From positions 1-64,000 of the IMG/VR virus record IMGVR_UViG_3300025084_003207: a stretch of 64,000 nucleotides of DNA, one strand, 5' to 3'. The translations under genes were made by a program, and so were the position numbers. This document shows, one piece after another, positions 1 through 64,000 of the stretch (position 1 is the stretch's first letter; the number at the start of each line of letters is the position of its first letter). Below the pieces are notes generated by a model. The model searched no databases and was not told where the DNA came from. It saw only the letters and a list, made by a program, of their open reading frames with translations. Source of the DNA: a virus.

Positions 1-1
1 A

Positions 2-238
2 CCATGGGAAACTCCAGTAGAATTTTACTGGGGCGGAGACCGTTGGTTATGTCGTACCCATCACACTCCCAATCCTGAATATAGCCACTGGAACCGTGCT
101 ATCATAGGCAAGGCTGAACAATGGATTCCTTTAGAGGAGCAAGGTAGATCAGACTACAAATGTCAGTACAAGACCAAGAATGGTTGGTTTGATCAAAAAG
201 ATGCCCAACTGAAAAAAGAAGTTCAGGAGGCGGCGTAA
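2..238 (+). CDS. hypothetical protein, 5'-truncated by window edge
   Basis: Open frame PWETPVEFYWGGDRW...KKEVQEAA* ends at TAA 236-238, overlapping the next ATG (TAATG coupling). Not in the ORF track. Confidence 0.7.
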   Translation, partial: PWETPVEFYWGGDRWLCRTHHTPNPEYSHWNRAIIGKAEQWIPLEEQGRSDYKCQYKTKNGWFDQKDAQLKKEVQEAA

Positions 239-600
239 TGATTAAACAAAGAAATACAACTGTTCTTGCAAGTGACTATCAAAGCACTGAGCAACTTAAA
301 AAATTTGTTAAGCATTGTACTGGTGCTAAAATGACACCAGTGAAAGGTAAGGAAAATGCATTTTGGGTATCGGGTGATAAAAGAGGCGACTACTACGAGC
401 AAAAGTATTACAAAATAGTATTTGGCCCAGTCACCCAAGTTTCTTACAGACCAAACAGAAGTGAGAAATCAGGCTATGGTTTTGATATTCAAACAACTGG
501 GGACCTAAATGGTTGGCAGTTAATGGGTGAATACAGAACAATGATCAAAGAAACAATGGCTGAGTATAGGAAAACAAGGCCAGAAAATTTGGTAAAATAG
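238..600 (+). CDS. hypothetical phage protein (120 aa)
   Basis: AGGAGG SD at ~225-230, TAATG coupling, no recognisable motif. Confidence 0.8.
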   Translation: MIKQRNTTVLASDYQSTEQLKKFVKHCTGAKMTPVKGKENAFWVSGDKRGDYYEQKYYKIVFGPVTQVSYRPNRSEKSGYGFDIQTTGDLNGWQLMGEYRTMIKETMAEYRKTRPENLVK

Positions 601-661: not shown

Positions 662-1933
662 ATGAATACATGGAATATAATTCAAGAATTAGAGAGCAAC
701 AATAGTTCTCTATTCAAGCAAGACGTTATCAAGCAAAACATTGATAACAGTGAATTTGTTACTGGTATTCAGTATGCCTTAGATCCATTAGTTACCTTTG
801 GTGTACAACAAGTACCATTCAGTGAAGCAGATGGCAAAGGCATACTTCCAGAAGAGTTTTATAAAATTGCTGATATGCTAGTTGCAAGAGAACTTACTGG
901 ACATGCGGCCAGAGATGCTATTCAAGAACTATGTGATTTAGCAACTAACGAGCAATGGAACGATTGGTACAGACGTATCTTAATTAAAGACCTACGTTGT
1001 GGTACTGGTGCTAAACTTATTAACAAAGTACAAAAGGATACTATTCCACTATTTGGTTGTATGTTAGCACATGATGGTGCTAAACATCCTAAGAAGATTA
1101 CAGGCGAATGCTTTATCGAATACAAGTATGATGGTGTCAGAGTTATTGCTATCGTGCAAAACGGTAGTGCTACATTATACTCACGTAATGGTAAACTACT
1201 TGCTAATTTTCCACACATTGAAGAAACATTGAGCAAGCCTGAGTTCGAAGGCTTAGTGTTTGATGGCGAAGTAATGAGTGAAGACTTTCAAAGTTTAATG
1301 AAGCAAGTACACAGAAAAGAAGGTGCTCAGACTGAGGATTCATATTTAGCAGTATTTGATATGCTTACACTTGAAGAGTTTAATGCAGGTGGTACTGATA
1401 TGACTGCATTCGAAAGACGTGAACGTTTAATTAGTAAACAGGCTAATTTTAATAACAGAATTACACTTGTTCAAGCAATCAATTTAGATTTAGACAGTGA
1501 GCAAGGCCAAGCAAGTTTTAAAGCAATGAACAAACAGGCACTAGAAGAAGGCTACGAAGGCTTAATGATTAAGCCTGTTAACGAAGGCTACAAGTGTAAA
1601 CGTTCACATGCTTGGTTAAAGATCAAACCTTTTATTGAAGTAACCTTAAGTGTTGTAGCACTAGAAGAAGGCACAGGCAAGAATGAAGGATTACTTGGTG
1701 CTCTTGTTGTAGAAGGCGAAGACGATGGTAAGTTTTTTAGACTTAACGTTGGTAGTGGACTAACTGATGAAAACAGAGAGCAAATTTGGGCAAACCAAGA
1801 TGCTGTTATTGGGCAGTTAGTTGAGATTAGAGCCGATGCGGCAACGCAAAGTCAGGACGCAGAAGATACTTGGAGCCTTAGGTTTCCAAGATTTAAAACA
1901 TTCCGTGGCTTTGAATTAGGGGAGAAACTGTAA
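662..1933 (+). CDS. lig: ATP-dependent DNA ligase (T4 gp30-like)
   Basis: Motif I EYKYDGVR, FDGEVM, EGLMIK, WLKIK, OB-fold SLRFPRF; N-terminal RILIKDLRCG as in phage ligases. Confidence 0.95.
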   Translation: MNTWNIIQELESNNSSLFKQDVIKQNIDNSEFVTGIQYALDPLVTFGVQQVPFSEADGKGILPEEFYKIADMLVARELTGHAARDAIQELCDLATNEQWNDWYRRILIKDLRCGTGAKLINKVQKDTIPLFGCMLAHDGAKHPKKITGECFIEYKYDGVRVIAIVQNGSATLYSRNGKLLANFPHIEETLSKPEFEGLVFDGEVMSEDFQSLMKQVHRKEGAQTEDSYLAVFDMLTLEEFNAGGTDMTAFERRERLISKQANFNNRITLVQAINLDLDSEQGQASFKAMNKQALEEGYEGLMIKPVNEGYKCKRSHAWLKIKPFIEVTLSVVALEEGTGKNEGLLGALVVEGEDDGKFFRLNVGSGLTDENREQIWANQDAVIGQLVEIRADAATQSQDAEDTWSLRFPRFKTFRGFELGEKL

Positions 1934-3147: not shown

Positions 3148-3420
3148 ATGACGCAATACGACGATACAGTAGAAAGACAACGAGTATTACTTGCCGCTGA
3201 AGATTGGGCAAAAGGTGTTAAATCAGTTCATGCACATTCACTTGGTTCCATGTGGTATGATACTAGGCCTCAAGATACCCAAGACGGAAATTCTGTGATG
3301 GATATACAATACAATAGTGGACTTATTGAAAGACAAACAAGCGATGGTTATACAGTCTACTTTGGTAAAGAACTTAAAGGTGATGACCTAATACAAGAGT
3401 TTCAAAGAAACTCTGCATGA
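3148..3420 (+). CDS. hypothetical phage protein (90 aa)
   Basis: ORF track; directly behind late-type motif; ATGA coupling to next gene. Confidence 0.75.
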   Translation: MTQYDDTVERQRVLLAAEDWAKGVKSVHAHSLGSMWYDTRPQDTQDGNSVMDIQYNSGLIERQTSDGYTVYFGKELKGDDLIQEFQRNSA

Positions 3421-4658
3421 AAGATATCCTAGTAATTCCCTACTGGGAAGAGTTTGACGATATACTAGGAAAATCTCGTCCTGCTAGGCTTTGCAATAAA
3501 GCACTAGAATACCCAATGTCAGAAGATGTCACTAGAAACATAGTTCTCATGAGATCAATAGAGCAGTTGGAAGAACTCATTGAATCCGGAAATGACAATC
3601 TTACTATTCAGTTTGGGTTGCATTTAAGACCACAATTAGATTATGAAACAGGTGATAAATTATTTGGTATTGTAGAAAGATTATCTAAATGTAAAAACTT
3701 TGATAATGTTAAATGGAGATTTGCCAATGGTTGGGATATCTATAATTTAGATGAAGAGGCAAGACGTAATTGGTTAGTAGATCAAACTAGATTAATTAAA
3801 CAAGAAAATATCAGTATTCATATAAACAATTTTTTAACTGTTAAAGATTATAAAAAAGTTTTACCAAAAGCAGATATACAATTTTACAATGTATATTATA
3901 ATAGAATATTTTGCAATAATGAAGAATTAAATTTTCAGCCTAATGTTGAAAAACGCAATAAGCATTTTGTAGCATTTAATGGTAGAGTATGCTGGCACAG
4001 GGATTATATTGTCAATCACATTGAGAACAAATATAAAGAAAAATGTTATTACAGTTACATAGAAAAAAATATAACACTAGGAAAACAGACTGGTGTAAAC
4101 AGCGACACAGGTACTACTCCAACTTATGAAATGTATGATAGGCAATATGAAGATTGGATGATGAAGCCGTCATTTAGTGTATTAAATGATTCTTATGTAC
4201 AAGTTGTAACCGAATCTTTCTTTGACCCTAACTCTATTGCTGTAGCATTTAATGGTAATGATGAACAAGGTAATTCAGATATAAATATCAAACCCATAGG
4301 AACAGCAAACGGTTTGATAACTGAAAAAACTTATAAAACGTTTTTATACGAACAACCAATGTTGCTAGTTGCATTTCCAGGAATACTTGCACAGATTAAA
4401 GAAATGGGTTACAAAACTTTTCCTGAATTCTTTGATGAAGACTATGATAATGAACAGCATCATCATACTAGAATGAATAAAATTGTTGCAAGTTTAGACA
4501 AGTTTATGCAAATGGATCTAGATGAAATACATGAACTTTACCACAGTGATTCTGTACAAGAAAAACTAAAACATAATAAAGAATTGTTTTACAAGAGCAC
4601 AATTGAATGCCCGATCAACAAATGGTTTGTGCCTAACAAACAATACCAACTATCCTAA
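3417..4658 (+). CDS. putative glycosyltransferase (GT-B / GT10-like C-terminal motif), paralog 1
   Basis: FVAFNGR..WHR, VVTES, ITEKTYK..LYEQPML..GIL..IKEMGYKTFPEFFDEDYD; pattern shared with 11039-12418 and 12400-13983. The ITEK motif resembles the GT10 nucleotide-sugar motif (function inferred). Confidence 0.5.
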   Translation: MKDILVIPYWEEFDDILGKSRPARLCNKALEYPMSEDVTRNIVLMRSIEQLEELIESGNDNLTIQFGLHLRPQLDYETGDKLFGIVERLSKCKNFDNVKWRFANGWDIYNLDEEARRNWLVDQTRLIKQENISIHINNFLTVKDYKKVLPKADIQFYNVYYNRIFCNNEELNFQPNVEKRNKHFVAFNGRVCWHRDYIVNHIENKYKEKCYYSYIEKNITLGKQTGVNSDTGTTPTYEMYDRQYEDWMMKPSFSVLNDSYVQVVTESFFDPNSIAVAFNGNDEQGNSDINIKPIGTANGLITEKTYKTFLYEQPMLLVAFPGILAQIKEMGYKTFPEFFDEDYDNEQHHHTRMNKIVASLDKFMQMDLDEIHELYHSDSVQEKLKHNKELFYKSTIECPINKWFVPNKQYQLS

Positions 4659-4676
4659 AAAACAAAACAAATCTCT

Positions 4677-4684
4677 GATAAATA
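4677..4684 (+). promoter_or_regulatory. late-type promoter GATAAATA
   Basis: Intergenic. Followed by hairpin TGTACTA-GAAAT-TAGTACA (4689-4707) and AGGAG SD before ATG 4730. Confidence 0.65.
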
Positions 4685-4729
4685 TGAGTGTACTAGAAAT
4701 TAGTACAGAGACATAAACAGGAGAACAAA

Positions 4730-6052
4730 ATGGCCTCAATCGGATTCATTGGGGTAGGCAAGTTAGGACAAGCCTGCGCCGAGATGGTCGCCGAGGTCCA
4801 TGATGTTGTTGGTTATGATGTCAATCCAGTAGAGCCTGAAAACTTTACAATGGTTGACAATATGGAAGATGCTGTAAAAGGACAAGACATTGTTTTTATC
4901 GCAGTACCTACTCCACATGACCCGCAGTATGATGGAAAGGCACCTACCAGCCATTTACCTAACAAGGACTTTGATTACACAATAGTTAAAGACATTCTTG
5001 AAAAAGTAAATGCTGTAGCGACCCAAGAACAATTAATAGTCCTTATATCAACAGTACTTCCAGGTACTGTTAGAAGAGAATTTATTCCATTAATTACTAA
5101 CACAAGATTTGTATATAATCCATACTTAATTGCTATGGGTACTGTGAAATGGGATATGGTTAATCCAGAAATGGTAATGATTGGAACAGAAGATGGAAGT
5201 GAAACAGGTGATGCAAAAGAACTTGTGGACTTCTACAAAACAATAATGCAAAACGATCCTAAGTACATTATAGGTACATGGGACGAATGCGAATGTATTA
5301 AAGTTTTTTATAATACATTTATATCAGCAAAAGTAAGTTTAGTAAACATGATACAAGATGTTGCAGAAAAGCAAGGCAACATCAATGCAGAAGTAGTATG
5401 TGATGCACTTGCAAACTCAGATAGACGTATTATGGGACCAGGTTATATGAAACCAGGTATGGGCGATGGCGGTGCTTGTCACCCTAGAGATAACATTGCT
5501 CTACGTTGGATGGCAGAGGACTTGGATTTAGGTTATGACTTGTTTGATGCAGTAATGTTATCAAGAGAAGTACAAGCAGAGAACATGGCAAAACGTCTAA
5601 TGGAACTTGCAGGAGATGAACACCCAGCATTTGGTTTAGTACCAAGCAAGCCTATAATTATTGTAGGTAAAGCATACAAGCCACTTGTACCGTATGAAAC
5701 AGGCTCTAGCAGTATGCTTGTTGGACATTACATTGAAAAAGCAGGATTTGAATTATATTACTATGACGAACAAACAGGCGACATGCCTCCGCAGGAAGTA
5801 TTAGATAGTCCTGCTGTTTATCTTTTAGCACATAACCCAGAAGTCACATATGGCGATCAATTAGACACAGTACCAAGTTGGTATGGTGAGCATAACGTCA
5901 CAGATTGCGACGAAGCATTAAGTGTAAAAACAGGTAATGGTTCAGAACTTAGTTTTGCTATTAATAGTACAGTAGTAGACCCATGGAGAAAAACACCTGA
6001 CATAGACGGTGTTACTGTTATCCACTACGGGAATACTAGAGGAGCAAAATGA
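4730..6052 (+). CDS. ugd: UDP-glucose/GDP-mannose dehydrogenase family protein
   Basis: GFIGVGKLG Rossmann motif, FIAVPTP, STVLPGT, KVFYNTFISAKVSLVN, catalytic GGACHPRD. Confidence 0.9.
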   Translation: MASIGFIGVGKLGQACAEMVAEVHDVVGYDVNPVEPENFTMVDNMEDAVKGQDIVFIAVPTPHDPQYDGKAPTSHLPNKDFDYTIVKDILEKVNAVATQEQLIVLISTVLPGTVRREFIPLITNTRFVYNPYLIAMGTVKWDMVNPEMVMIGTEDGSETGDAKELVDFYKTIMQNDPKYIIGTWDECECIKVFYNTFISAKVSLVNMIQDVAEKQGNINAEVVCDALANSDRRIMGPGYMKPGMGDGGACHPRDNIALRWMAEDLDLGYDLFDAVMLSREVQAENMAKRLMELAGDEHPAFGLVPSKPIIIVGKAYKPLVPYETGSSSMLVGHYIEKAGFELYYYDEQTGDMPPQEVLDSPAVYLLAHNPEVTYGDQLDTVPSWYGEHNVTDCDEALSVKTGNGSELSFAINSTVVDPWRKTPDIDGVTVIHYGNTRGAK

Positions 6053-6837
6053 ACATAGATCAACAAATACTTGATCACATATTCCATAAGTGGGGTAGTG
6101 ACAGTGAAAAACTTGCTTTGAATGAGCAATATCGCTATACCCCTCCCTACCCTACTTTGGCTTTAGATGATTTTATCCCTTATAATGTAGCAAAATTATT
6201 ATACGAAGAAAGTAAAACTATACCTAAAAAATATTGGACAACATTTACTAGAGCAGATAGTTATATGGAAGAGTGCAAAGACTTAGACGAGGCACCAGTT
6301 GCCAGAGGAGTTGTTAGTGCTTTACATAGTAGAGAGTTCTTAACATGGTTAAGCCAAGTATGTGATGTACAACATTTATTACCGGACCCTTACTTAGTTG
6401 GTGCTGGTTATATGAAAAGTTACAAAGGCGACAGTTTAAAAATACACTCAGACTTTAATTGGAATGAAGAATGTCAAACTCATAGAGCATTAAGTTTAAT
6501 ATTATATTTTACACCTGACTGGGACGAAGCATGGCACGGTGACTTACAGTTTTGGGATTTTGAAAAGAAAGGAAAAGTAGTAAGTTACCCACCTAAAATG
6601 GGAAATGTAGTTGTGTGGAAATATCATAAACGAGGTTTCCACGGACATCCAAATCCAATTGACTGTCCTGAAGATAAATTTAGAGTAGGCTTTAGAGCAT
6701 TTTATTATATATCAGATAGTAAACACGATTGGAGAGATCCACCACACAAAAGTTTATATTGGTATGACAAAGAAAAGAATCAACCATACCATTTAGAAAA
6801 TGAATACGGACATGGTAAACTAAAAGACGATGACTAA
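6049..6837 (+). CDS. 2OG-Fe(II) oxygenase
   Basis: LPDPYLVGAG, IHSDFN (HxD), LILYFTPDWDEAWHGDLQFWD, FHGHP...R. Confidence 0.85.
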   Translation: MNIDQQILDHIFHKWGSDSEKLALNEQYRYTPPYPTLALDDFIPYNVAKLLYEESKTIPKKYWTTFTRADSYMEECKDLDEAPVARGVVSALHSREFLTWLSQVCDVQHLLPDPYLVGAGYMKSYKGDSLKIHSDFNWNEECQTHRALSLILYFTPDWDEAWHGDLQFWDFEKKGKVVSYPPKMGNVVVWKYHKRGFHGHPNPIDCPEDKFRVGFRAFYYISDSKHDWRDPPHKSLYWYDKEKNQPYHLENEYGHGKLKDDD

Positions 6838-7753
6838 TTATAATTATCAAGGTCCGCTTAATGGCGGTTATGCTATACAGGACAAAAACATTACATCAGA
6901 ACTGAGAGATTTCTGTATGAGCACTTATGAGTGGGACGAATTTTTTGCCGCTGATGGTGTAACTGATCACAGAGAAAAATTTATAGAAATTTTTGGTAGA
7001 TGGATACGCAGTAGTGATTTAAATACCATTGATGGCCTAGATGCATTTCCGCATGTTACACAAACTAATGGTACTAGTGAAGCATTCAGTATGTTTATGC
7101 AACGTCATAGAGATAAGAACTTTAAATTTTTTAAAGGTGACTTTATGATGCACAAAGTTGCATGTAATAATATGAATGTTAATTGGGAATGGATTTATAA
7201 TTACGGCCAAATTAGAAAAGGCGATGCTGTAATTATAAGTTGCCCATTTAGTGACACAGGCAGAGCAAAAGAAGATATGCATGAATTCTTAGAATGGTGC
7301 ACAATAAACAATGTACCAGTACTAATTGATATGGCATACTTTGGAATGTGTTACGGTATTGATATTGATGTCGACAAGCCATGTGTAGAAGAAGTTACTT
7401 TTAGTTTAGGTAAAACATTTCCTATCATTGGTGCTAGAGCAGGTATTAGACTACAACGTACTGAAATAGATGATGCTGTACTGTTTGCTAATCAACATGG
7501 TATAGTAAATAACTTTGGTGCTATGATAGGTGAATTTGCCATGAGTGCTTGGGGACCAGATTATATACCAAACAAGTATATGAAAACACAATGGGTAGTG
7601 TGTAATAAATTAAAATTAAAACCAACTAGTTGTGTTATATTTGCACAAAGCAATCATTTAGAACATCAGCAATTTAATAGAGGCAACGATTTAACAAGGC
7701 TTTGTATATCAAAGTTGCTAGTAGAGGAATATGAACGAACCAAAGTATTGTAG
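6830..7753 (+). CDS. PLP-dependent aminotransferase-fold (class I/II-like) enzyme, compact
   Basis: NGTSEAF, SCPFSDTG, LIDMAYFG (DxAY), FSLGKTF...RAG (PLP lysine). Confidence 0.7.
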   Translation: MTNYNYQGPLNGGYAIQDKNITSELRDFCMSTYEWDEFFAADGVTDHREKFIEIFGRWIRSSDLNTIDGLDAFPHVTQTNGTSEAFSMFMQRHRDKNFKFFKGDFMMHKVACNNMNVNWEWIYNYGQIRKGDAVIISCPFSDTGRAKEDMHEFLEWCTINNVPVLIDMAYFGMCYGIDIDVDKPCVEEVTFSLGKTFPIIGARAGIRLQRTEIDDAVLFANQHGIVNNFGAMIGEFAMSAWGPDYIPNKYMKTQWVVCNKLKLKPTSCVIFAQSNHLEHQQFNRGNDLTRLCISKLLVEEYERTKVL

Positions 7754-8957: not shown

Positions 8958-8958
8958 C

Positions 8959-9138
8959 ATGGCAAAATTAAAACAACCAAAACTAGGAGATAGAATATTA
9001 CACAAAGAGCCTGCCTTTGCTAGAGAAAACGAAGGAGTAGTAATACAACTATTAGGAATGCAGTTTGTGTATAAAACAGATAGTGGCGAAGAACGTTTTT
9101 GTCTGTTTAGAGAGGATTGGAGAAAGATCAATGACTGA
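8959..9138 (+). CDS. small hypothetical protein (59 aa, possibly SH3-like)
   Basis: MAKLKQPKLGDRILHKEPAFARENEGVVIQLLG...FREDWRKIND*; fills the gap; not in track. Confidence 0.65.
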   Translation: MAKLKQPKLGDRILHKEPAFARENEGVVIQLLGMQFVYKTDSGEERFCLFREDWRKIND

Positions 9139-9298
9139 TAAAAAAGAATTCGATATGACCGATATAGGTGATATTGCAAGTGAATGGAAGAATGTAAATT
9201 GGGACCTAGTTCAACGTATGCGATTTATGAATGCTGATGCTGAAATAGATCCAGAAGATGGTTATTCAGAAGGTAAACTAAAGTTCGATGAAGACTAG
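9131..9298 (+). CDS. small acidic protein (55 aa)
   Basis: Start moved from 9065 to ATG 9131 (GGAGA SD, overlap with upstream stop). Confidence 0.6.
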   Translation: MTDKKEFDMTDIGDIASEWKNVNWDLVQRMRFMNADAEIDPEDGYSEGKLKFDED

Positions 9299-13983: not shown

Positions 13984-13991
13984 CATAAATA
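13984..13991 (+). promoter_or_regulatory. late-type promoter CATAAATA
   Basis: 5 nt before SD-less ATG 13997. Confidence 0.6.
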
Positions 13992-13996
13992 CTGTT

Positions 13997-14173: not shown

Positions 14174-14177
14174 TAAA

Positions 14178-56800: not shown

Positions 56801-59800
56801 TTATATTATTGTCTAATGTTATATCGAATGGCAAGTATGAATTTACGGTATAATCTTTATCTGCACATAAAACTGTATTATTATGTTGCAATATATGTAA
56901 GTTTTTATCTAATGAAATATTTGCTGTATTACTGAATGTATACTCTTGTAAACTCACATTACTGATTGAAATTTCTTCATTGGTGTAATCTGCGCCAATT
57001 GGAATCATGTAAGATAAATCAAAGCCGCCGGAAGTGACTTTACTAGATTTTAAAGTCTTTAATACTGTGTCTAATATTTCTAAATTTGTTTGATCTAAAT
57101 AGTCATTATTGTTAAGATAAACTTCTAAACCTGATATAAATTTATTTTTAAAATTGTTGTACTGATCATTACCAAATCTTAATGCATTGATTAAATTTCT
57201 GCTTTCGTTCTTACTGAAATACATGGAATGCAGTAAATCAGAATCAATTTGACCAATGTTGATATCATTGATATTAAATGTTTTACTTGTATCTTTGTAA
57301 TTGTTATTACCAGTTACTTTACCGCTAAAACCTTCCTGCCCTAGTAATAATTTATTTCCATGGCCTACAAGGTCACTTAATCTTGTTTCTGTAATTTCAG
57401 TGTTTAACGGATTATATTTTATTGCACTTGGAATTTCAAAATATCCATATGCATCAATAGACGTTTTTCTTTCGCCCTTAGTAAATGTTCTAACATTAAT
57501 TACATCAGTATCTTTTAAAGTCACTGCTTCATTGAATGTAAAATTAAAAGTTGCATCAACTCCGTGTCCGTTATTAGATGCTGTATTAATAATTGATGTG
57601 ATATTTCCAGGATGGCCAACTAGTTCGCTGTAAAGGCCGTAGTTTGACACAGAAATAGTTTTGATCTGTCCGCCACCGTTACTGATATTTCCACTATATG
57701 CTTCGGCATCAGTGACAGTTATTGCAACATTACTGCTACTTCCTGGTATACTTAATGTCAATACATCACCGACTTCATAACCTAAACCTGGGTTATTTAA
57801 TGATACATCTTTAAGAGTAGGATTTAATACAATACCTGTACTGCTATTTCTAATTGCAAAATCTTCGTTTAGTGTGAGAACAGTATCATTAATTTTAACA
57901 ATAATATCATTGTTGTAAGGTGTTGCACTTGTTGTGAAAAATTTATCTGTTACATTGATTTTATCAATTAAAATTACATCTTCTACATATTGTTTAGAAT
58001 ATAATGAATGCTCATCCTCATAAAATTTAAAATTACTAATATCAAAATTACCAGCAGAAATATTTGCATTTGCTACAAAATATTGATCATTGTATTTTAC
58101 TACTTCATTTGTGAAATATGTTTCTACATTACTAAAGTCTCTATATTGATCTGGTGTACTTATTGGATGCCAATTGTTTCTAAATCTTGTATTGTCATTG
58201 CCTTTATAATCTTGTTGTAAATCTTTATAAAAAAGATATCCAGATATTGTAGATGCGTTTGCTAATAAATTTGCTTTGTATGTTACAGTATGATTACCTA
58301 AATGATTAAAAAATGTAGGTTCACTGCTAAACTTACTTGTTTGATAAACAACATTCGCACCTAAATCTGCATCATACGATGTCTGCTTGGTACTTGTTTT
58401 ATCAGTATTATATGTAAATATAGGACAACCTTTAAAATCACTATACGGATATTTTGCAGGATCATCTACTTTAACTCCTTCTGAGTCATATAAATTAAAT
58501 AAAGGCTCTTGGTTAATTTGTATCTTTTGCTGTGCTTGTCGCCATGCTGTGCCAGTCCAGTAGTAATCTAAACCTATGTTAGTTCCTGTAATACTGTACA
58601 CATGACCGTTAGTGACAATTAAATTACTTAGAGAAGTGTCTTCACTAAATTGAATTGTACCGCTATTATCTTGTATTCTATAAATTTTTTGTGCTATTGC
58701 TGTATCGTCTTGTGGGAAAATTATACTGGCATTTGCAGTACCTGATGCACTATTGATTGGAAAGCCTATTGCTAATCCTTCTAGATCTTCTTTTTTCTTA
58801 TCTGCAATTATGTCTATTTTAGATATAAAGGAGTTACCCCAGTTATGTAATTCTATATCTCTGTCGAATTCTAAAATAGGTCGTGTTGCTCGTTGAGCCG
58901 CATCTGGTAAAGCAAACCCTGTTGCATTATCTTTAAGTGGTTCCCTTAATTCGTTTACATGCCACCAGTAATTTAATCTGCTCCATGGATTTCTATTTTT
59001 TGAACCTTTTTCTATAACCATGTAATCGGGTTGGTTCTGTGTTGATTCTGAACCCCATGGTGCTGTGCCCCAACCGTAAACTGTATCGTTATTCCATTGT
59101 AGTTCTGGTACTATGTATGTTTGATGGAAATCGTCTAATGCAAAGTTTTTATCCCATTGCACACTATCGGGTAATAAGTAGTTAGACTCCGCTTCAACAT
59201 CTAGATAAACAACATTACCTGTTCGTTGTGCATTGTTACCTAAATACTTTACATTGGCTGACACGGCATCGCCTACTTTAAGTTCAATATTACCAATGTA
59301 CAGTCTAGAATTGTTATGTACAGATGCATTGGCGGCTCCTGACGGTACGCCGTCTGCTAAATTTCTATAGTACTCTTTGAAATCGCCGCCTGGTGTATCA
59401 ACAAAGTCTTCTGGTAAATTTGTTTCTAGATTATAATATGATTGCGAATTTGCCTGAGTATATGTTATTGATATTGATCGCTCTAAAGGAAAATCATTAA
59501 ATTCCGCATAAGCAGATGTAGAATCACCTGGCAAAATAAATTGTATTCCTTTACCTACGCCTGTTACAATATAAGTAGTATCTTTAGTTAGTACACTGGT
59601 GTTTGAAATATGATCACCTGTGAATTTAATAACCATCTCATTTCTAAGTGTTTGCCCTGCCGGTGACGTGTAATTTTTTAATCCAACAATGTAATCTATA
59701 TTAATTTGTACAGAGGAATTACCCTGTATTTCAGTGACTTCTGGTCCTGTTGGGTACCAATAGTAATCCTGATAGTTTATAAGTTTGTCTATGTTTATTG

Positions 59801-60155
59801 GTGGTGCATAAGCATATTGATTAGTTTTAAATAATCTGTTATGGTTATCAATTAATCCACCTTTGCTTCTTAAGTCATATAAAAAGTCCTCATAGAAAAC
59901 ATAATTTACAGGTTTACCTGTGTCTGGATTTACTGTGGTTACCACAGGGTCAAAACTATAGTATTCTCTATTAGGTGCTGGTTGCTCTACAAATGATGTA
60001 TTGCTGTTGCTAATTTCTCTTGGAGTTCCTATAAAGCCTTGTATATTTTCTACATTTGCTTTTGAAAATAATTGTTCGACTGTGCTTTCAAAGAAATTTT
60101 TATTAACACTAGTCTGGTGCTGTATAGGTAATAGATCAAAAAATTTGTTTGTCAT
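38880..60155 (-). CDS. giant baseplate wedge-like virion protein (7091 aa)
   Basis: Uninterrupted 21.3-kb ORF after a gp6-like wedge gene. N-terminal PPINIDKLINYQDYYW and NPWSRLNYW, C-terminal DWCFKT/KPYTSKLR and IGDERITF...LTGVTRGTNGT patterns resemble jumbo-phage wedge proteins. Repeated V.I.N.G.GY beta motifs. Confidence 0.75.
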   Translation of the reverse strand: MTNKFFDLLPIQHQTSVNKNFFESTVEQLFSKANVENIQGFIGTPREISNSNTSFVEQPAPNREYYSFDPVVTTVNPDTGKPVNYVFYEDFLYDLRSKGGLIDNHNRLFKTNQYAYAPPINIDKLINYQDYYWYPTGPEVTEIQGNSSVQINIDYIVGLKNYTSPAGQTLRNEMVIKFTGDHISNTSVLTKDTTYIVTGVGKGIQFILPGDSTSAYAEFNDFPLERSISITYTQANSQSYYNLETNLPEDFVDTPGGDFKEYYRNLADGVPSGAANASVHNNSRLYIGNIELKVGDAVSANVKYLGNNAQRTGNVVYLDVEAESNYLLPDSVQWDKNFALDDFHQTYIVPELQWNNDTVYGWGTAPWGSESTQNQPDYMVIEKGSKNRNPWSRLNYWWHVNELREPLKDNATGFALPDAAQRATRPILEFDRDIELHNWGNSFISKIDIIADKKKEDLEGLAIGFPINSASGTANASIIFPQDDTAIAQKIYRIQDNSGTIQFSEDTSLSNLIVTNGHVYSITGTNIGLDYYWTGTAWRQAQQKIQINQEPLFNLYDSEGVKVDDPAKYPYSDFKGCPIFTYNTDKTSTKQTSYDADLGANVVYQTSKFSSEPTFFNHLGNHTVTYKANLLANASTISGYLFYKDLQQDYKGNDNTRFRNNWHPISTPDQYRDFSNVETYFTNEVVKYNDQYFVANANISAGNFDISNFKFYEDEHSLYSKQYVEDVILIDKINVTDKFFTTSATPYNNDIIVKINDTVLTLNEDFAIRNSSTGIVLNPTLKDVSLNNPGLGYEVGDVLTLSIPGSSSNVAITVTDAEAYSGNISNGGGQIKTISVSNYGLYSELVGHPGNITSIINTASNNGHGVDATFNFTFNEAVTLKDTDVINVRTFTKGERKTSIDAYGYFEIPSAIKYNPLNTEITETRLSDLVGHGNKLLLGQEGFSGKVTGNNNYKDTSKTFNINDINIGQIDSDLLHSMYFSKNESRNLINALRFGNDQYNNFKNKFISGLEVYLNNNDYLDQTNLEILDTVLKTLKSSKVTSGGFDLSYMIPIGADYTNEEISISNVSLQEYTFSNTANISLDKNLHILQHNNTVLCADKDYTVNSYLPFDITLDNNITLAENDTLNLRIYEDSESADVPASLSKLGMFRAFQPQFMTDTSYQVDKDVILCHDGSYVIRQNDKIDDIILAFEQIVYSNIEEEYRNCENIELNEYEIKPSFFCETDFSLVEYNTLLNTNFNKWNKQNKVDYRTNSVFDSTNEFTWNYASGPAEPGYWRGVYDYYYDTQTPTVTPWEMFGYCKKPSWWDTEYPTAITSSYTAFWNNVRDGYIPAGSRKGYWKRWARPTIYSYLPVDSSGNLRSPKEIIYTSLTADSIDIDNQWAFGDIGPVEYAWRKSSYYPFAILEMLYLSRPGEFTKLFYDKRNLKRLTVHPEQLVDKTTGKRKLRQNFDPHGYRSTDNVITLRPGYTTLLYQYLTFYSLNINVEIGNPVKTLDTRLGHKFAGFVNSKQLKVFSESISTDGFSASQVLPKEDVTVNLHTSPYNSRNFYTGVKITKQAEGYSVSGFDTVLQYFEIIPSDFAGPLEGVQEGGSPADFSIFETGLSYLKDEIVKLGSVYYIAKENISAGAFDTAQWTQIPSLPTIGGASGTVYQLGTGVTEKVYYDTVFKSVQQVFDFLISLGRKQKDIGFDFGEFDSSINSMNDWVLAGRRFLFWSTEDHDVGESVKLSPLAETLKFVSTSGKISKISRQINDQYSILDENGKAIIPEDCSIVREDNTITVSPIDNRIYGMLLHTELVEHAFVINNKTVFNDVINDNVLGIRQDRLEVNTQRSRNWDGRYQAEGLVIVGDAVLPNFDTLIDSIRLYHDKDAIQLDPLKSQLAKGLLGYQTTNEYADIKIDDTIGFQYYKGLINQKGTANSLTSLIRSNVVNTNKNIEIFEEWAIKRGEFGDVYNHQSMDIKLEQDKFTRDNQQIEIIYPENITGAVSNIFVFERNTTYYNVPTIEIDPPTNGNAATATAKLYANAQLESVTITSGGDGYSSKPNVAVITGNIVISQFSDVLAYGLAGSNATVDLPLSGANALTNVNIYDHTTSSNLDIYLGNERSIDSVVEVLNREFTDANIANIVAYGDIDTQAEKHLVSQITKAGSNTRIATDRATVTSNTSIEINTPVGSNASIITNGASTLTFSNVDSITNTNPATVTLTTKTGFTPLQNGDTLTFVNHEPYTVLTSNILNQTYFVKATADTTVYELYTNEQLTANVDATSWYNESVSGVDTHLQSVGAYRSAEADLVNVEFNYSTITGLGTHNVSYFTELTAYNNSYYAERGASNTQIKLYTDPALQIPLNTTGLTKPFSDSNLSTDYIQANVTVLGTGGDNRLFIKGSDFTISEVELSGGSDSTTLAVLNIPAGRYQPTQRFPIRSANNTTSNDIIVSVDGNNVGATYWSYDRGARTIITANASVVNDYNINPNNAFSIEIGGQNKFEDENITQIDGLYPFAEIYIDGKRIKNSPDYDAFTLTNNSTTTTISFSNASLYTDNFSIGSNITVVESGSVQFNNTFTADVPGKVLSIKSVANDTLIANTISKRTYERTPDILTDNKITIDIDDPDTMLKRPTNSLQDGLWYRDNKEDYIVPNAGYVNRNKVDWESIDLSYFANLIGSGKVNIPKENDYLHLGKSENEDWNVFNLKKHGIENSTGNVSGAKNYIDNVNGRAMLFSDQRLSKWTDGNILGDKTNANFYDNVIVLKNTNLSDTVLEWSNENFVFTPRTVYKGDYRPLKKINRGITKIEPGYTRPITKVEPYKDPNYMARIYAERSHPAPGLDFFTRASVVKDNLPNAHANSVLISPNSLAGLGVGDTVRFTGTQATAANLTVGKAYTVTGISERGLGGNPGAVDVDDPSKGFFTINEANVTGTDYASINSDCYVAYESDLEFNVNMKVKGLSGTSTVLLEVADEYNLNISSYISNGLDIDFSLMSGERITNTNDFYVDDYSYTVANWNSSDKTFEISSNVTTQTATITRSGFNEITLAAFGNIDGKGNSTLAGANSAIIDKGDFVQFTSTGNYSGNVYPVQSNDGNFIQIYDPSITSNTAGRTAVVYTGSKETRTGSISNLTSNALTLSGFETSNLGNYGFGNVQYMNSNTSTGVIPSVSGSERPFKINGNTVIIDVEDAVRTMQTRFPVHTLRDTTNNTVDLFFRDNGAGEFARVLFNDSEKTPEEQNILSNDPSKLFNYNNKPVYLGLGLPTSQNQISLETDFTGIPESLRSIDGVELDLEFRYVTDQGLRELLRQTGVQGDTSSSEFVNNAYEMLSKTENFDSAWWIENFTFTQENPSLDGMYIELQARNGSEVTSKLDLIPRHFGQHEAFNIIGDVEKQLSISTVSSKLVDKTDKNRLKLDFSDLHPMSFSKVISVIDSKDNNLIWTDPNGNIIQVHSSQPKKIRGSLLTNKLRPSHINGGSYPFEWWGEDVKNVLSQGADNKIVLNLGFENGLTAYPGHNNFDVAIPLVIVHGAKFKYTLAPTTKNELLNLRVAIKDDSGNIPQIVDRKIASVGQSSITIDNSDNTFTTNDTTNNLNAIIYQVDENKNKQVLANDYASPVEKSTTDNGYSAVLLQPKSNSSSLNSGNTLGYISTLPTQIGSAGTFYVGINQSANVSLDSIFGSNLDIAFDYLPLNHTGVSSKQINVSDVNVAVDVHVVEPQHKMFMDTEAVDNNILRFADTVHGANSVLTGNIVVANTQTNYAIIPKSISDNVGTYAINETQKNSLGIIVSSAHGPHLVFNKPNNLLSVNDTIFVNTSGSANGINNTEFRIRAVTENTFTVKLANTNVIPTAELSSMKYLTYGLPIIEGTASTNTVTTRTIHVPANIHVFEPGDNITLNTGSVDTASVNGQTYIVNAVLENAIMINHATAPTSLTTNLTASLTGNANLHIMTLPRGYAVPGMTGSIYDPENIYSLGGNTDVTFNKITDLDFDKNFTTTDGKPVMYFEKDLGTSFNNDELMLDIYEATRFYSKDHNIGKVDDNQLVVSSTNASSEGLVNIELPNGLRGISVGANITFSHSQVGHVLSGNSFVVVDFVNLIDNIEGDGEQYITIEAPGATATSNVFSVSYDNYIPSQSRTIKIGNTRNYDGFATPFLADKNSFVINTIYTGNVVTNGHWVSDTMLITGTDDFQNEINVKPTQNHIAIKNSPIRNYNATYKMAPIGMDQRRLGKNQIEVFGFTNSNVAIDFTDKNVSYSLTDHNAVEINDNKTYLPAQDTVEQVADSLNFISDFKAGAIDKEKKMEVGFLFGYRDPRSDNRTSPDFNQKYVQRPADVSGLDQVYSYEYIGAPAGNALKGGVNKFSPVKANETIAERRAPSKLAGKYIIDMQGLEEQVYYGSLNEQRTKRPHGTPAFKVLDGKLTADKELVQNYENNLNNMYLDPSLQTIKNKAEAPFGSPKHGTWPYTGYTGPYMGTYYDNWMGGNQWWRDDKYGYRQLNGEHYGGGISGGGGGPGGTQDPPPQDPPPPAESCGKFRITLYDTNSGEEGTTYEFDDGLFDIVQQYIDSEYTNISGYQNQFIQAGGTGADWTTILSYIEGIGENYTKIPYNQLDVDLCELQDLHIKDITGNTCTSSGEVLHLGGSAVSLPEGCDPCSLADAINSQSPNFNAECVPEDTKREPKSCVIKGGRQAWGTTDFRGVDKIVKMGNNKGQSVDYIGQRDDNYKLLEGRKDGVPAVLFGSRHDDARLMVSIDGPNLLKSIKLQLEEKGLDPNEYKSVVLRSTTNDDVSGELLHWKNSTARITNTGSGIKGEYNNIARHPFAIVYAPSSGSIFDEGQQMQTIQFGKDAMGRGINKDTMSVYVSKLNRSRYDYSTKGKGGILYRLPKHGTSDHKYLGDLYNFTIIDDLYLGGFGSKTDEDTRSNAITTTKEQDERGFKFDKITGYGERVQDGGKWKDRTGSWFRNLWQYHAKQQRRVQGCTSAEDANIPQLNPIVRIKSAVPFSLGTGCSRSPFTEVGDFQPYREKNINSSANLTIANALTPEQYNELGGDDTSVFTPKVISGGLPGQEVTIVDIMGAPDTSNPFMTSDYIRIDGYPVNPRSGEGTRDGQVANANVGIVQTGMVEDSTGFNYMVGDKLTIVGGRPKTIDEDAYYLSDVVVTNPGSGYNPRTTRLEVIDTEMGTILPGVQINPVFQPSDDAVTPVTKNTGRTAISSAVLPYKTYIGYKGCREIDWLSGLDTNTAFIDRAGNSINGITIDARRVDVGIDSQNTYYEETFTLSATTAMELGTTYKAFVGTRKYENFGEFMMFNFEENSTTGINDRGQSNFTSSFNESERNDLNGAWIICWNIPNSQNKFTSTNAHDNFGDLAQGTVGIMKSYYDVEAFGPLTRDDFNHFLSDNIKETNGRIVKFLKLDNDRAYFQVMNPYDLDTAAGRSIGTPDFANMFARFYPINSLNEFSADTSSTFANNYEVIIENDTSVSSDVTASGTATFRMDSRDAVHGLKVKAKQLGNNPDATMQQFDIFVFQDGVDVGYLRVPVTIHFDIPASTHGGEFDIAGSTLANNMAKLNYSTVYRPVVQPVNELQESEAIIYKFDFSNLPDDAKVNDIDIDLRFDSYAPGDFDMMWLTSPEGRRIPLLQTLGSFGSEGQHNQQGFLDGYDYHKNDIIQAFQFTLTSSLTAEAIKYGGSNLNYSNKVKPSIGMPTRDLNNHGQHFDTASGAISKVLGSDYGNDVTLSEYGINYNSVENVLRKFLRDEDGNIRGILGKGTWFLEWSRPGRIIDLAYDPGTVGNKKTKIRTPNIKIKYTSASENPAYDSADKESIGDVAIIQKGGFQPEFATRRYTVVAKGSSGTGFEAQAFLKKGKLVGEDNPDIKSQQAVFEVLKINQAGSITKLRILDRGVYEIFPAEFERGVPLKYLEGDMASPTMKTRPYGEGYGARVQLTSRSVINCQQPPGIVSRNSGPSRPATPTETLADLINTVGGIDGGLTASSTPINPSVHTLSIKTDADGFELSDLVPGTLDALGIPAGDYGPNAFGFSADVGDGGNGFGLNDSGIRKDNPFDKGDPDSLILYNASTPPEFDGLSSSNFGNVYSYDLNRVGGGQLVTEKLQSEVDVLYLKSARVRSKYELKSLMPKAWVDNYDVNGWAYLENGKVVYRKDKLVDSSKIKSALIYDNITGERISDVFLNDPFKNVFMPEVERNLTYISESDPVYYADDSSNFSNKNVGELWWNTSNMRVRWYEQSDDDYRRQYWGSYVDGSQVDVYEWIESTETPIEYSGPGTPLDIEKYLIDQRYVSSTGLFKNLYYYWVKDITDVPNVKGRTASASSVASLIASPKLQNIPTFGAISNNSIVLNNVKSYLTDDESVFQINFKRTDSKYKNKHESYILLGENNISGNIPSEFFHKLVDSLVEEDRLGKVVPDPYLNKFERYGISIRPRQTMFVKPKNARRELVYFINSIMKDIKLSDDLYSGWDSELTTNTYYEITDWVATGYDTNTIKSRANVRSVKEMRGLTNIPDGAFVRLIGIGDNPDRFFEYNSAKDDYDLVKIVGGTMKLKYSVFGEINPGLTSELRQLLFAIRNNIFKNTNLENKLYFSMLNYVLTEQYQTDWCFKTTYFNVRQSAENLVQTPATKIDTFNSVVKSIKENKPYTSKLRDFEDRKISIDSLKSFATDFDRPPYQPDLSITAKILDDSNSGDVSILTNNTEYVNWTNNYSNNATKIRTITEKIFIDRINDEISPIYDHTDSNGILTVQLASKYNQPQSNTSAIRMEQLSDASSNATPINHIERVFKYNTVITDLTKKIADTDTYSSDIIAGFVATRDATLRTLAYADFFGEELDANIFAKAYFDSIGKELMSTGLGYDLFGFDSAGFDSKQSVNNYTVNAAVQSELIRDTLTYQGFDSSTFFTGLSGPGIPPEHALFKPLEGLQINVQSNMTAYDNDGTVVGNQDGVFRPKSGATQLPGTHGNANVSYKIFVGMNGATEYIRLSDSNKTTLAANITAKSLTIQIADATAITPPYTGSPATAVFIGDERITFEGIVGNTLTGVTRGTNGTSAESHTVGETVYDATESNNINAGAFAYGANADPEITIWNVDGGTASPLANANTSIAGFLQAGPGSYFG
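46663..46733 (-). repeat. Gly/Pro linker with 15-bp tandem duplication (QDPPP x2)
   Basis: GGTGGTGGATCTTG at 46663-46676 and 46678-46691; protein GGGISGGGGGPGGTQDPPPQDPPPP. Confidence 0.8.
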
Positions 60156-63100
60156 TAGTATCCACTTCCACCGGAGCCACTGCTACCACTACTACCACTG
60201 CTACTGCTACTGCTAGTACTACTTGTTGTAGATGATTTTGTGATTGCATTGCCCTTCATTTGTTTTAAATTTGTTGAAGATAAACTTTTTACTACTTCTA
60301 CGTTATCAACTGTTGCTGTAGAAAAGAATAATTCATCTGATGCCGCTCTAACTTGATATAGATCACCAAATATAGATTCTGACTTGCTAGGTACAATAAC
60401 AACTGATGCTATTGCTTTACCTAACTCTTGATGAATGTATGCACTTAACTCTGAGAAATAAAATGTTTCACCAAAGTCCCAATTTTCTACATTAAAATAA
60501 GTATCAATTAATTCTAATACCGCACTTCTAACTTCTGCATCTGTTGTTGTACTTCCTGGTAATTTTACAACTTTAATTTTTGCTTGTAATTCTGGATCGG
60601 CGTCGTCGCCAAATAATAATTTAAATTTACCACTGCTGTAAACTAATTGGTCACTAACACTCTTAAACTCATCTAATCCTGAATATTCTTGTGCAAGTTG
60701 TTCTGATGTTGGTGCACTAGGCAATGTACTTACACCGCCATTTTTATAACTTAGCATTGCTTGGTAATATGATTTTGTAAGCATAAACATTTCTACAACA
60801 TTGCTGATACTAGGATCTATTCTAACATCACTTGGAGCAATGTGTTGCCATTCAAATGCACATTTTCTTGGATCGTTTTGAAGTGTGTTTTGCTCAAAAC
60901 TTCTACCTACTTTTACATTGTACTGGTTGTTTTCTGTTAGCACAATCATTTTAGGTGTTGTTAAATCATTAATTAATTCGTATACTTTAGGCAAAAGCGA
61001 TCTTGGAAAAACTAATTTGTGATTAAGTTTTCCTAAATTATTTTTTAAATATGTTTCTGCTACACTTAAATCTTTTACAATTATCAAATCAAAATCTGTA
61101 AATGCAGTTTTATTATCTGGATCACTGCCTGGAGCAACTGTGTCTAACACATAATCAACTGATATTTCTGTCTCTGTTGCAAAATTTAATATTTTAAATT
61201 TTGCTGGTCTTTCATATGTGTAGCCATCTAAATCTGTATATTGCTCAAAGAAAACAAAGTCTGTGCTACCTACAAATTTATCAAACAAGTCTGGATCATC
61301 TGGAAATCCATCATAGTCACTGTCAATGGGTTTGACAACAACTTTTGCCGGATCGGCAAAGCCATCGCCATATCTGTATGCATCGACTATTTCAAATTCT
61401 ATTGGCTTGTCTAAAGACTCTTTGACATTTTTATAAACAATTTGTAGTTTATCTGCATGTTTAAATCCATTCCATCTACTGCTTAAACTATCAAAATCGG
61501 AAACTTTAATACTTGAATTAGACAGCAAATCAATGTGTCCTTCTGATGCAGTATCTCCTACTTCAAATGTAGTTGTGGTTGCATTACCAGTATAGGTTTT
61601 ATAACTGCTTGAACCAATATCATAATTCACATAAGCAATATTACCATTTGCTCCGCCAACAATAGATGTACCAAATTTACTTAATGGTATAGTGATACCG
61701 CTTGGTAAACCTGATAATTTTGCACTATTTAATTTTACTACTGCTTTACCTGTAGTTGTCGATATTGGGTCTACTGCTATTGTTGTAGATACCGCTGGTG
61801 CAAAATCTCCTTGGCTATAATCTGCTGTGGGTGACACTGATGCTTCGCCGTTAACCAATAAACCAAAGTTACTGATAAATCTTACTTCTAAATCTTTTGC
61901 TTTTGTGTCTCTGCTTCTTAAAATAATTTCTGGACTGTTTCCTACATTAGGTGTGTATGTTGCATTAGTAGTTTCTAATTGCCAACTGTCACCTATGTCA
62001 TCTAAATTTGTATCAACCCAATTATATGTTTCTATTAACTCTGGTTTGAAGTTTGCTGTAGTTAAAGCAATGGTATCTTTTAATACTCTACCTGTTTTAC
62101 TATCAAATGTTTTTTCATCACTAGAAAAATAAAATTTTATATCTTTAAGACTTTCAAATATAATTCTAGTACCTCGGGTAGTTACTGTGTAATTTGAAAT
62201 GCTTGATGTACTATTTGTACTGTTGTATTCAAATTTCATTAACCAACTAGCACCGCTGGTAAGGTCTGGGTTAAAGTCTGCATTTTTTTGTAAATTACTG
62301 TTGTCAATAATATACCAGTGTGTGGAACCACTACCACCTGGTCTGAAATTATATCCTATACCAAAATCTTCTTTGGCTGTAATTCTTGTATTAAATGCTG
62401 TGCCTATATCTGTTTCTAATGCATTGGCATTTAATGTAGGTATTATTTCAGTGGCTCTCCATGCATTTGGAATTTCTTTGTTTAATTTTACTACCCCTTC
62501 TGTGACACTTAGTAAATTTGTTGGTACACCATTATTTGTAATACTGGTAATGGTTGCTAATTCCTCTTGTGTAGGATCGTTTGGATTTTTAAATTTTATA
62601 TATGAACCGGCTTGTATGATTCTATTATCATTTACACTATTGTTAAGTGTGGTTCTGACGCCGGCTTCTAGTCTAGTAAAATAACCTGTGTTATTTTTAT
62701 TTTTACTAGGCTGGGTTACCCATGCAATATCTTTATTATTTGCTGTTAAGTCAAATGCTAATGCATCTAAGCCTTTATGTAATTTTCTATAATCGTCATA
62801 AACAAAGTTTTGTAGATTTGTGTCTTTAGTAATATTAGCAACATCTTCTTTTAAAATTTGCATTGTTGTTTTACTTGTACCAAATGTTAAATATGTATCT
62901 TTGTTTTCGATATCTTTATATAATGCACCGTCGTCTGCAAACGAAGTTACACTACTGAACCTTCCTGTAGGATCTTCAATATCAATATATCTACTATGGC
63001 CTGCATGTGTTCTATTTGTTGCTTTTAATTTTAGAATGTTTGCACTTTGGCTCAGTGGAAATACATTATAGTCTTGAGCACTAACCATTCTATTTTGAGT

Positions 63101-64000
63101 ATAATATGTTTGTGGTGCTCTTCGTTTAATACTTTGTAAAGTTTCTGCGGCTGAACTATTTGATACTGTGGCTTTTAATGACATCCTTAAAGTAAGGTTA
63201 TGCAATTCGCCTTTTCTATTATAATAAGGTAATGTTAATTCTTTGTTTTGAAAATCTGCTGGTCTAATAGACATGTTTTCGCCAATGCTAGTTCTGAAAT
63301 AAATTCTAAAAATACCAGAAGGTATGTTTGCAAAATTACCGTCTGAAAATCTTACTCTAATACCGTCGTCGAATAAGTTGTCAATTGCATATAAATTTCT
63401 AGATTCTAAACTGGTTGCATTATATAATAAAGTTTGTCCTTGAAGATTGCTGACTTTTTGCCAAGTAAGTTGGTTAACAGCATTATTGTCTAACTGATGC
63501 ACAAATACATCTGTTTCATTGATGTTTGCAACTGGTATATCTACTGTTCTGTTAGGCAAGGCTCTTTCAAAAATATAATCTTCAAAACTCAACTCGCCTT
63601 GTTTGAACATCATGAAAAATCCTGTGTAAGGACTTTCTAATCCTCTTTTGTCATCTCGATAAGAAATTCTCATCTGACTGTAAATGTCTGGTTGTGCTTC
63701 TTTGAAAACACCGTTTTCAATATTTGTACTAACAAATTCAAAAGGTACACTAGTACCATTTACTGTTGCACTTGTTGAAAATACAGGTGTTGTGCCTATT
63801 TCGTTATTGAAGCCATATATCTGTGTAGCAATACCGCCTACTGTTTCTTCAATGATTGGTTTTGTAAAAGGATTTGCTACTGAAAATGCACTATTTAAAA
63901 CTGTAATGAATTGATCAAAACTATTATTATTTGTTGGATCATTCCAATCAATTCTGATATTCTGTAAACTGTCGCCTGAAGCATCTAGTAATGGCTCGTC
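60155..64000 (-). CDS. baseplate wedge subunit (T4 gp6-like), 5'-truncated by window edge
   Basis: RFSDGNFANIP, ETLQSIKRRAPQTYYTQNRMVSAQDY, YFNVENWDFGETFYFSELSAYI. The frame stays open upstream of 63673 to the edge (DEPLLDASGDSLQNIRIDWND...SQMRIS). Confidence 0.85.
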   Translation of the reverse strand, partial: DEPLLDASGDSLQNIRIDWNDPTNNNSFDQFITVLNSAFSVANPFTKPIIEETVGGIATQIYGFNNEIGTTPVFSTSATVNGTSVPFEFVSTNIENGVFKEAQPDIYSQMRISYRDDKRGLESPYTGFFMMFKQGELSFEDYIFERALPNRTVDIPVANINETDVFVHQLDNNAVNQLTWQKVSNLQGQTLLYNATSLESRNLYAIDNLFDDGIRVRFSDGNFANIPSGIFRIYFRTSIGENMSIRPADFQNKELTLPYYNRKGELHNLTLRMSLKATVSNSSAAETLQSIKRRAPQTYYTQNRMVSAQDYNVFPLSQSANILKLKATNRTHAGHSRYIDIEDPTGRFSSVTSFADDGALYKDIENKDTYLTFGTSKTTMQILKEDVANITKDTNLQNFVYDDYRKLHKGLDALAFDLTANNKDIAWVTQPSKNKNNTGYFTRLEAGVRTTLNNSVNDNRIIQAGSYIKFKNPNDPTQEELATITSITNNGVPTNLLSVTEGVVKLNKEIPNAWRATEIIPTLNANALETDIGTAFNTRITAKEDFGIGYNFRPGGSGSTHWYIIDNSNLQKNADFNPDLTSGASWLMKFEYNSTNSTSSISNYTVTTRGTRIIFESLKDIKFYFSSDEKTFDSKTGRVLKDTIALTTANFKPELIETYNWVDTNLDDIGDSWQLETTNATYTPNVGNSPEIILRSRDTKAKDLEVRFISNFGLLVNGEASVSPTADYSQGDFAPAVSTTIAVDPISTTTGKAVVKLNSAKLSGLPSGITIPLSKFGTSIVGGANGNIAYVNYDIGSSSYKTYTGNATTTTFEVGDTASEGHIDLLSNSSIKVSDFDSLSSRWNGFKHADKLQIVYKNVKESLDKPIEFEIVDAYRYGDGFADPAKVVVKPIDSDYDGFPDDPDLFDKFVGSTDFVFFEQYTDLDGYTYERPAKFKILNFATETEISVDYVLDTVAPGSDPDNKTAFTDFDLIIVKDLSVAETYLKNNLGKLNHKLVFPRSLLPKVYELINDLTTPKMIVLTENNQYNVKVGRSFEQNTLQNDPRKCAFEWQHIAPSDVRIDPSISNVVEMFMLTKSYYQAMLSYKNGGVSTLPSAPTSEQLAQEYSGLDEFKSVSDQLVYSSGKFKLLFGDDADPELQAKIKVVKLPGSTTTDAEVRSAVLELIDTYFNVENWDFGETFYFSELSAYIHQELGKAIASVVIVPSKSESIFGDLYQVRAASDELFFSTATVDNVEVVKSLSSTNLKQMKGNAITKSSTTSSTSSSSSSGSSGSSGSGGSGY
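60158..60235 (-). repeat. low-complexity Ser/Gly tail SSTTSSTSSSSSSGSSGSSGSGGSGY
   Basis: AGT/AGC/GGT trinucleotide runs at the 3' end of the wedge gene. Confidence 0.8.

Follow-up and report, generated by a model that had tools for sequence, protein, structure and literature searches.

How does a phage genome come to hold not a single copy of short words that chance would place in it many times over? The question is raised by bases 1-64000 of the 92,809-bp IMG/VR virus record IMGVR_UViG_3300025084_003207, the 64,000-base stretch that we call the window, which lacks both AGCT and GCWGC. This DNA is a fragment of an uncultured, marine, T4-like jumbo myophage: it encodes a gp23-type capsid protein (67% identity to its counterpart in Pseudomonas phage PA5oct), a gp20-type portal, a prohead protease, a baseplate wedge and a virion-type protein of 7091 amino acids, and a megablast of 20 kb against cultured phages returned no match. 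Gene calling on the contig (G000) gave 67 open reading frames (ORFs) covering 94% of its length, and the GC content of the window is 34.4%, where the preliminary description of this DNA had put it at ~33%. CheckV estimates completeness at 26%, implying a genome of ~350 kb. A second IMG/VR contig, G005 (48,119 bp), shares window bases 1-4789 with 99.94% identity; it adds 43.3 kb of the same phage on the left, for a merged sequence of 136,139 bp, or ~39% of the estimated genome.

The absence of AGCT and GCWGC is selected, not compositional, and has been achieved by synonymous recoding. The preliminary description had found neither word in the window, and k-mer counts agree: zero of each, far under the 221 ± 14 AGCT and 58 ± 7 GCWGC expected from dinucleotide-preserving shuffles. 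The stretch free of both words spans 1..64000 and continues to the contig end at 92,809 and through the 43 kb to the left on G005, so that the counts are also zero for the whole contig and for the merged sequence. As a more conservative null, we shuffled synonymous codons within each gene, which holds every protein and the per-gene codon usage fixed; this predicts 213 ± 12 AGCT and 70.6 ± 4.7 GCWGC in the contig, and ~335 and ~118 in the merged sequence. Both words are missing alike from both strands, all frames and intergenic DNA. Under the same null GATC, GGCC, TGCA and CATG occur at expectation in the contig, and GCSGC is enriched (100 observed versus 40 expected), in compensation for the avoidance of GCWGC.

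The recoding is directly visible as forced codon choice, a claim of the preliminary description that is borne out. Each of the 73 Ala-Ala pairs opens with GCC (49) or GCG (24), codons that are otherwise uncommon in this phage: elsewhere, 88% of Ala codons are GCA or GCT. Examples that had been quoted are present where they were placed, among them GAT GCC GCC GCC in the carbamoyltransferase gene (14211..14222, plus strand), CATGCGGCC in the DNA ligase gene (902..910, plus strand; Ala-Ala as GCG-GCC) and CTTGCCGCT (3190..3198, plus strand; Ala-Ala as GCC-GCT). GCT is never used after an A-ending codon (0 of 574, versus 32% otherwise), Ser AGC never precedes T (0 of 377, versus 12.6%), and no CTN Leu codon follows AAG, CAG or GAG (0 of 73, versus 46% after AAA, CAA or GAA). 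Likewise AGC or TGC is not found after an NGC codon (0 of 64), and CAG and CTG are never used between a preceding G and a following C. In an orthologue comparison, 27 conserved dipeptides that are written with AGCT in relatives are matched here by a synonymous alternative.

AGCT and GCWGC, the only two words that the preliminary description listed as avoided, are indeed purged, but at least six further words had been missed. The merged sequence contains no TACGTA (expected ~25 times), TGCGCA or GCTAGC, and GGGCT/AGCCC is absent from the contig, with 2 copies in the merged sequence. In the contig, AGCGT/ACGCT falls to 5 copies versus 54 expected and GCGC to 16 versus 57; GCATGC, GTGCAC, GCAAGC, GTTAAC, CTGCAG and GGATCC are also reduced in count, and control palindromes are at expectation. 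Of the words previously listed as present, GATC, GGCC and CCGG do occur at expectation and GANTC occurs 115 times in the window, but GCGC is four-fold depleted. The purged words are mostly short and type II-like (AGCT, GCWGC, TACGTA, TGCGCA, GCTAGC, GCGC, GCATGC, GTGCAC), and nearly all of those purged in full are short palindromes for which type IIP enzymes are known; neither GA nor GGC occurs in any palindrome that has been purged completely.

Where a word has been purged only in part, the copies that remain share a flank. All 49 such copies in the merged sequence have a G directly 5' on one strand, against ~44% expected. Counts of G-flanked and other copies are 21 and 0 for GCGC (expected 53 and 33), 8 and 0 for AGCGT (32 and 57), 7 and 0 for GCAAGC (6.8 and 19.7), 4 and 0 for GCATGC (5.7 and 4.3), 7 and 0 for GTGCAC (10.9 and 6.5), and 2 and 0 for AGCCC (15 and 40); no G-flank bias was seen among the control words tested. 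The nine GCGC survivors in the window, all of them GGCGC or GCGCC, lie at 4776, 12819, 19439, 35039, 37408, 38641, 49741, 51707 and 56992 (span 4776..56995), and the three AGCGT/ACGCT survivors, all GAGCGT, at 18618, 30130 and 43988 (span 18618..43992). The GC-rich run GCCGCGGCGCCT in a tail-fibre-like gene (35033..35044, minus strand) holds a surviving GCGC, as GGCGCC, together with a surviving CGCG, as CCGCGG. The same flank recurs in relatives: in those with few AGCT, every copy is GAGCT or AGCTC, and in the related contig G009 (340 kb, 91% complete) it accompanies 4 of 4 AAGCTT and 7 of 9 GCTAGC.

The purge is a clade character with lineage-specific extras. Across 39 ligase-centred loci (617 kb, ligase identity 68-100%) there is no GCWGC and no AAGCTT, while AGCT occurs 201 times with a flanking G and never without, and GCGC 85 times with and never without. 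The corresponding counts in 37 outgroup loci (427 kb) are 351 and 664 for AGCT, 122 and 368 for GCWGC, and 112 and 111 for GCGC; outgroup phages of similar GC have normal counts and show no avoidance. In the sub-lineages of this phage GAGCT has been lost too. The purge has been stepwise, HAGCTD having been lost first and GAGCT later in this lineage. In capsid-centred loci from 80 IMG/VR contigs, GCWGC and TACGTA are missing, with few exceptions, down to 79% capsid identity, and AGCT and GGGCT only at 84% or more. Contigs with capsid genes 99% identical are present in many samples.

Each of the larger related contigs has its own overlapping set of purged palindromes, which is what varying restriction repertoires would produce. 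G003 (the record of locus L034; 57,275 bp; capsid 83% identical) lacks AGCT, GCWGC and also CATG, of which ~220 copies are expected. G001 and G002 lack GCWGC, TGCGCA and AGCGCT and are poor in AAGCTT, and G001 additionally lacks GTGCAC, AGGCCT and ACGCGT. G009 has kept AGCT and GCWGC and has purged AAGCTT, AGCGCT, ACGCGT and most GCTAGC. TGCA is strongly depleted in another set of lines (L018-L025, L029, L115, L133, L139 and L124), with, for example, 17 copies in 11.5 kb versus ~70 in sister contigs. Mean protein identity between this phage and the larger related contigs is ~53%, at which synonymous sites are saturated, so selection must be continuous.

What, then, is the selecting agent? Selection against sequence-specific nucleases explains the purge, because type II enzymes cut at short palindromes like those that have been purged. 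The preliminary description had proposed host restriction or a phage nuclease; nuclease selection is supported as a class, and the choice between the two agents stands as it was left there. Cognate methylases or nucleases encoded by the phage, for which a search was proposed at that stage, were looked for in the merged sequence and none was found. Neither contig matches the C5 or N4/N6 methylase families (PF00145, PF01555), so the sites would be unprotected; these families occur sporadically, in distant relatives only.

The G flank and a group of biosynthetic genes suggest a second layer of defence. In Escherichia phage CAjan, the guanines of GA and GGC are replaced by preQ0 (dPreQ0), and enzymes with such sites are blocked (Kot et al. 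2020, PMC7544227); a strict GA motif for DNA modification is reported for Pseudomonas phage iggy (PMC10484667). Our phage recalls CAjan in that copies of the purged words survive only where a 5' G creates GA or GGC and in that it encodes FolE and a QueE-like enzyme. Contig G005 carries, at 17699-20116 (locus L198), ~13-15 kb left of window base 1, three adjacent genes for a QueE-like radical SAM enzyme (phrog_2076, 1e-51), GTP cyclohydrolase I (FolE; PF01227, 6e-38) and a phosphoribosyltransferase (PF00156, 1e-11), in that order, and QueE is conserved in the clade. This trio, which has no QueC, QueD or DpdA nearby, recalls nucleotide-level 7-deazapurine pathways and not the DpdA route. Together with the G-flank rule, these genes suggest a context-specific added guanine modification in this phage; the 49 G-flanked survivors and the three genes therefore make a partial, context-specific shielding of the phage DNA likely.

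Such shielding would come from genes outside the window. The preliminary description had argued that the DNA is not globally shielded by the 'tailoring island' (3417..34029), and this holds. That island, which like the remainder of the window lacks AGCT and GCWGC, encodes sugar- and protein-tailoring enzymes (UDP-glucose dehydrogenase, 2-oxoglutarate (2OG)-Fe oxygenases, an aminotransferase, twitch-type radical SAM paralogues, a carbamoyltransferase and glycosyltransferase-like proteins). It carries no DNA methylase, no DpdA and no other hallmark of DNA modification.

For the host there is one lead. G005 encodes an alternative oxidase (AOX; locus L199, 6631-7221, minus strand; PF01786, 9e-69), likely an auxiliary metabolic gene, which is 83-84% identical to AOX of streamlined Porticoccaceae (Porticoccus/Cellvibrionales) genomes and 70-76% identical to that of SAR86. 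A 575-residue protein with a TonB-dependent-receptor plug domain (L001 3035-4762, plus strand; contig 66035-67762) is of a family nearly confined to viruses and, for the host, implies a diderm envelope and nothing more. A cyanobacterial host was dropped given the AOX result. C5 methylases occur in 39 of the 151 species genomes of the candidate host family, which makes host restriction possible but not general.

On balance we favour host-population restriction systems as the selecting enzymes, with confidence that is evenly divided. On this reading the phage has used synonymous substitution to rid itself of all sites for a set of type II-like endonucleases: AGCT (AluI type), GCWGC (TseI/ApeKI type), TACGTA, TGCGCA, GCTAGC and nearly every GGGCT, as well as those copies of GCGC, AGCGT, GCAAGC, GCATGC and GTGCAC that lack a 5' G. 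Its unmethylated DNA would thus offer such enzymes no target. The enzymes would be restriction systems carried by the host population, which is probably a marine gammaproteobacterium, and a guanine modification in GA/GGC-like contexts would protect, as a second layer, the copies that have been allowed to stay.

Several observations weigh against this account, some bearing on the host and some on the modification. The host lead comes from one gene, AOX; a second host marker, a DUF481 protein, has no match in 301 genomes of the order. Neither C5 nor N4/N6 methylases occur in the four Porticoccus-like genomes nearest by AOX. In 400 kb sampled from the one complete chromosome among them (1.44 Mb), none of the purged words is avoided, with observed/expected ratios of 0.94-1.01 for AGCT and 0.96-1.15 for GCWGC and densities of ~5.5 and ~1.3 per kb. 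The 'host fingerprint' anticipated in the preliminary description is not established, AOX leading to methylase-free genomes with a normal density of both words. The absence of the same four or more words in 39 contigs with ligases 68-100% identical means that the same specificities must have been at work without a break throughout the clade. Host systems that vary between strains do not usually behave in this way, and such deep conservation of the core words is explained at least equally well by a phage nuclease passed on vertically.

As to the modification, searches of G000, G005, G009 (91% complete) and nine related contigs gave no TGT/DpdA (PF01702) match, although a very divergent DpdA could escape them; QueC has no match in the merged sequence and weak sub-threshold matches in relatives, and QueD was found in G009 and not in the merged sequence. 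In these respects our phage differs from CAjan, as it does in having a phosphoribosyltransferase beside FolE and QueE. GGGCT and GGCWGC have been purged although they contain GGC, and these two words and GGTGCAC do not fit a simple GA/GGC rule. A further difference is that the G of GAGCT is not itself part of the 4-bp site. We also observed moderate depletion, in the merged sequence, of TCGA (160 versus 249 expected), ATCGAT (13 versus 28) and GGATCC (2 versus 10); given their GA content, these words do not fit a simple GA-shield rule.

The strongest competitor of host restriction, which we regard as possible but clearly less probable, is that the phage carries one or more restriction-like endonucleases of its own, inherited vertically and without a methylase, that cut host or competing-phage DNA at the purged words. 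Immunity would then follow from the absence of sites, G-flanked sites would be shielded by modification, and the role would resemble host-DNA degradation by T4, missing sites taking the place of hydroxymethylcytosine. Vertical inheritance would explain why the same core words are missing so absolutely and throughout the clade; targets abound in the candidate host chromosome, which carries no recognisable C5 or N4/N6 methylase and shows no avoidance; and the phage encodes no methylase in the merged sequence. Yet Pfam, PHROGs and PADLOC reveal no restriction-like gene in these 136 kb, and the HindIII, PvuII and NlaIII/IceA families (PF09518, PF09225, PF05315) are absent from 14-40 related contigs, including the CATG-free G003 and the AAGCTT-poor G009. 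PADLOC applied to ten orphan ORFs gave a 2OG-domain match and nothing else, and PDB sequence searches with two lineage-specific ORFs gave no nuclease. Among genes that are present here or in GCWGC-free contigs and missing from the non-avoiding G009, no nuclease candidate stands out, and the purge of at least eight words would require several nucleases.

A fuller version of the phage-nuclease idea is 'restriction without modification', in which the clade's own methylase-less nucleases would shred host and rival DNA, the corresponding sites in phage DNA having been erased and the remaining copies shielded through a DpdA-independent FolE/QueE/phosphoribosyltransferase route; we put this forward as a speculative proposal, somewhat more doubtful than a phage nuclease as such. 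Less probable again is a division of labour, with a phage-borne nuclease responsible for the core words GCWGC and AGCT and variable restriction by hosts or rival elements for CATG, TGCA, TACGTA, AGGCCT and others. This would account for the two tiers of conservation, core words being absent from all 39 ingroup loci and extras varying by sub-lineage, but it is less simple than either agent by itself, and we consider it unlikely. That no nuclease is involved, and that mutational bias, a codon-pair or translational constraint, or sequencing or assembly artefacts such as the systematic miscalls that modified motifs can cause in some long-read data produced the pattern, is highly improbable given that not one of the ~335 AGCT expected with amino acids and codon usage fixed is present, that the absence extends to both strands, every frame and intergenic DNA, that close words (GCSGC, AGCA, GATC, CATG) are normal or enriched, that outgroup phages of similar GC have normal counts, and that the same purge in dozens of independent assemblies from different samples rules out a sequencing artefact.

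Avoidance of restriction sites by phages is long known and reportedly concerns short palindromes in virulent dsDNA phages (Sharp 1986; Rocha et al. 2001; Rusinov et al. 2018); the GATC-free Staphylococcus phage K group is the textbook case. Ours is an extreme, multi-word and clade-wide case in uncultured marine jumbo phages. It resembles the known cases in that type II palindromes are under-represented, removal is synonymous, and no cognate methylase was found in the merged sequence. Unlike the usual case, avoidance is absolute for several words together (0 of ~335, 118 and 25), it is shared and layered stepwise across a deep clade of uncultured marine jumbo phages, and the candidate host shows neither methylases nor avoidance.

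T4, whose EndoII and EndoIV break down host DNA, protects itself with hydroxymethylcytosine, and chlorella viruses have restriction-modification systems from which their own DNA is exempt. Both are models for a phage nuclease, being large viruses that cut host DNA at short words while sparing their own, but they achieve protection by base modification or methylation and not by absence of sites, and no such nuclease gene was found here.

Conserved environmental methylomes include N4-methylcytosine (m4C) at AGCT in Thaumarchaeota and at GCWGC in Chloroflexi (Hiraoka et al. 2019, PMC6329791; 2022, PMC8919816). These cases show that there are systems specific for the two words and that entire aquatic lineages can share them. 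The comparison with host methylomes suggested in the preliminary description finds published matches for both words, but in unlikely hosts: a T4-like phage with a TonB-plug protein, 35% GC and a gammaproteobacterial AOX is not one that we would assign to Thaumarchaeota or Chloroflexi, and both were rejected as hosts on phage type, GC content and AOX affinity. Single-molecule real-time (SMRT) sequencing, on which those methylome studies relied, sees 5-methylcytosine (m5C) systems poorly.

Some further features of this phage deserve mention. The gene for the 7091-residue virion-type protein (38880..60155, minus strand) occupies one third of the window and, like the rest, holds no AGCT and no GCWGC; it is a single ORF that adjoins the baseplate wedge gene, and its homologues in relatives are 5536-6645 residues long. 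On G005, a 1225-residue protein (L200, 2226-5900, minus strand) contains many collagen triple-helix repeats (PF01391, 1e-48); at other places this contig also encodes sulfotransferase-like proteins and a DUF481 protein of outer-membrane type.

Because the purge can be read from sequence alone, it offers a free marker by which uncultured ocean jumbo phages can be sorted according to their shared exposure to nucleases. Its stepwise pattern would combine two anti-restriction strategies, the removal of sites and the shielding of the copies that remain. If the nucleases are phage-borne, the virus would distinguish its DNA from foreign DNA by a different means; if they are host-borne, an abundant group of marine hosts would possess a stable, multi-enzyme restriction barrier that is unseen in current methylome surveys.

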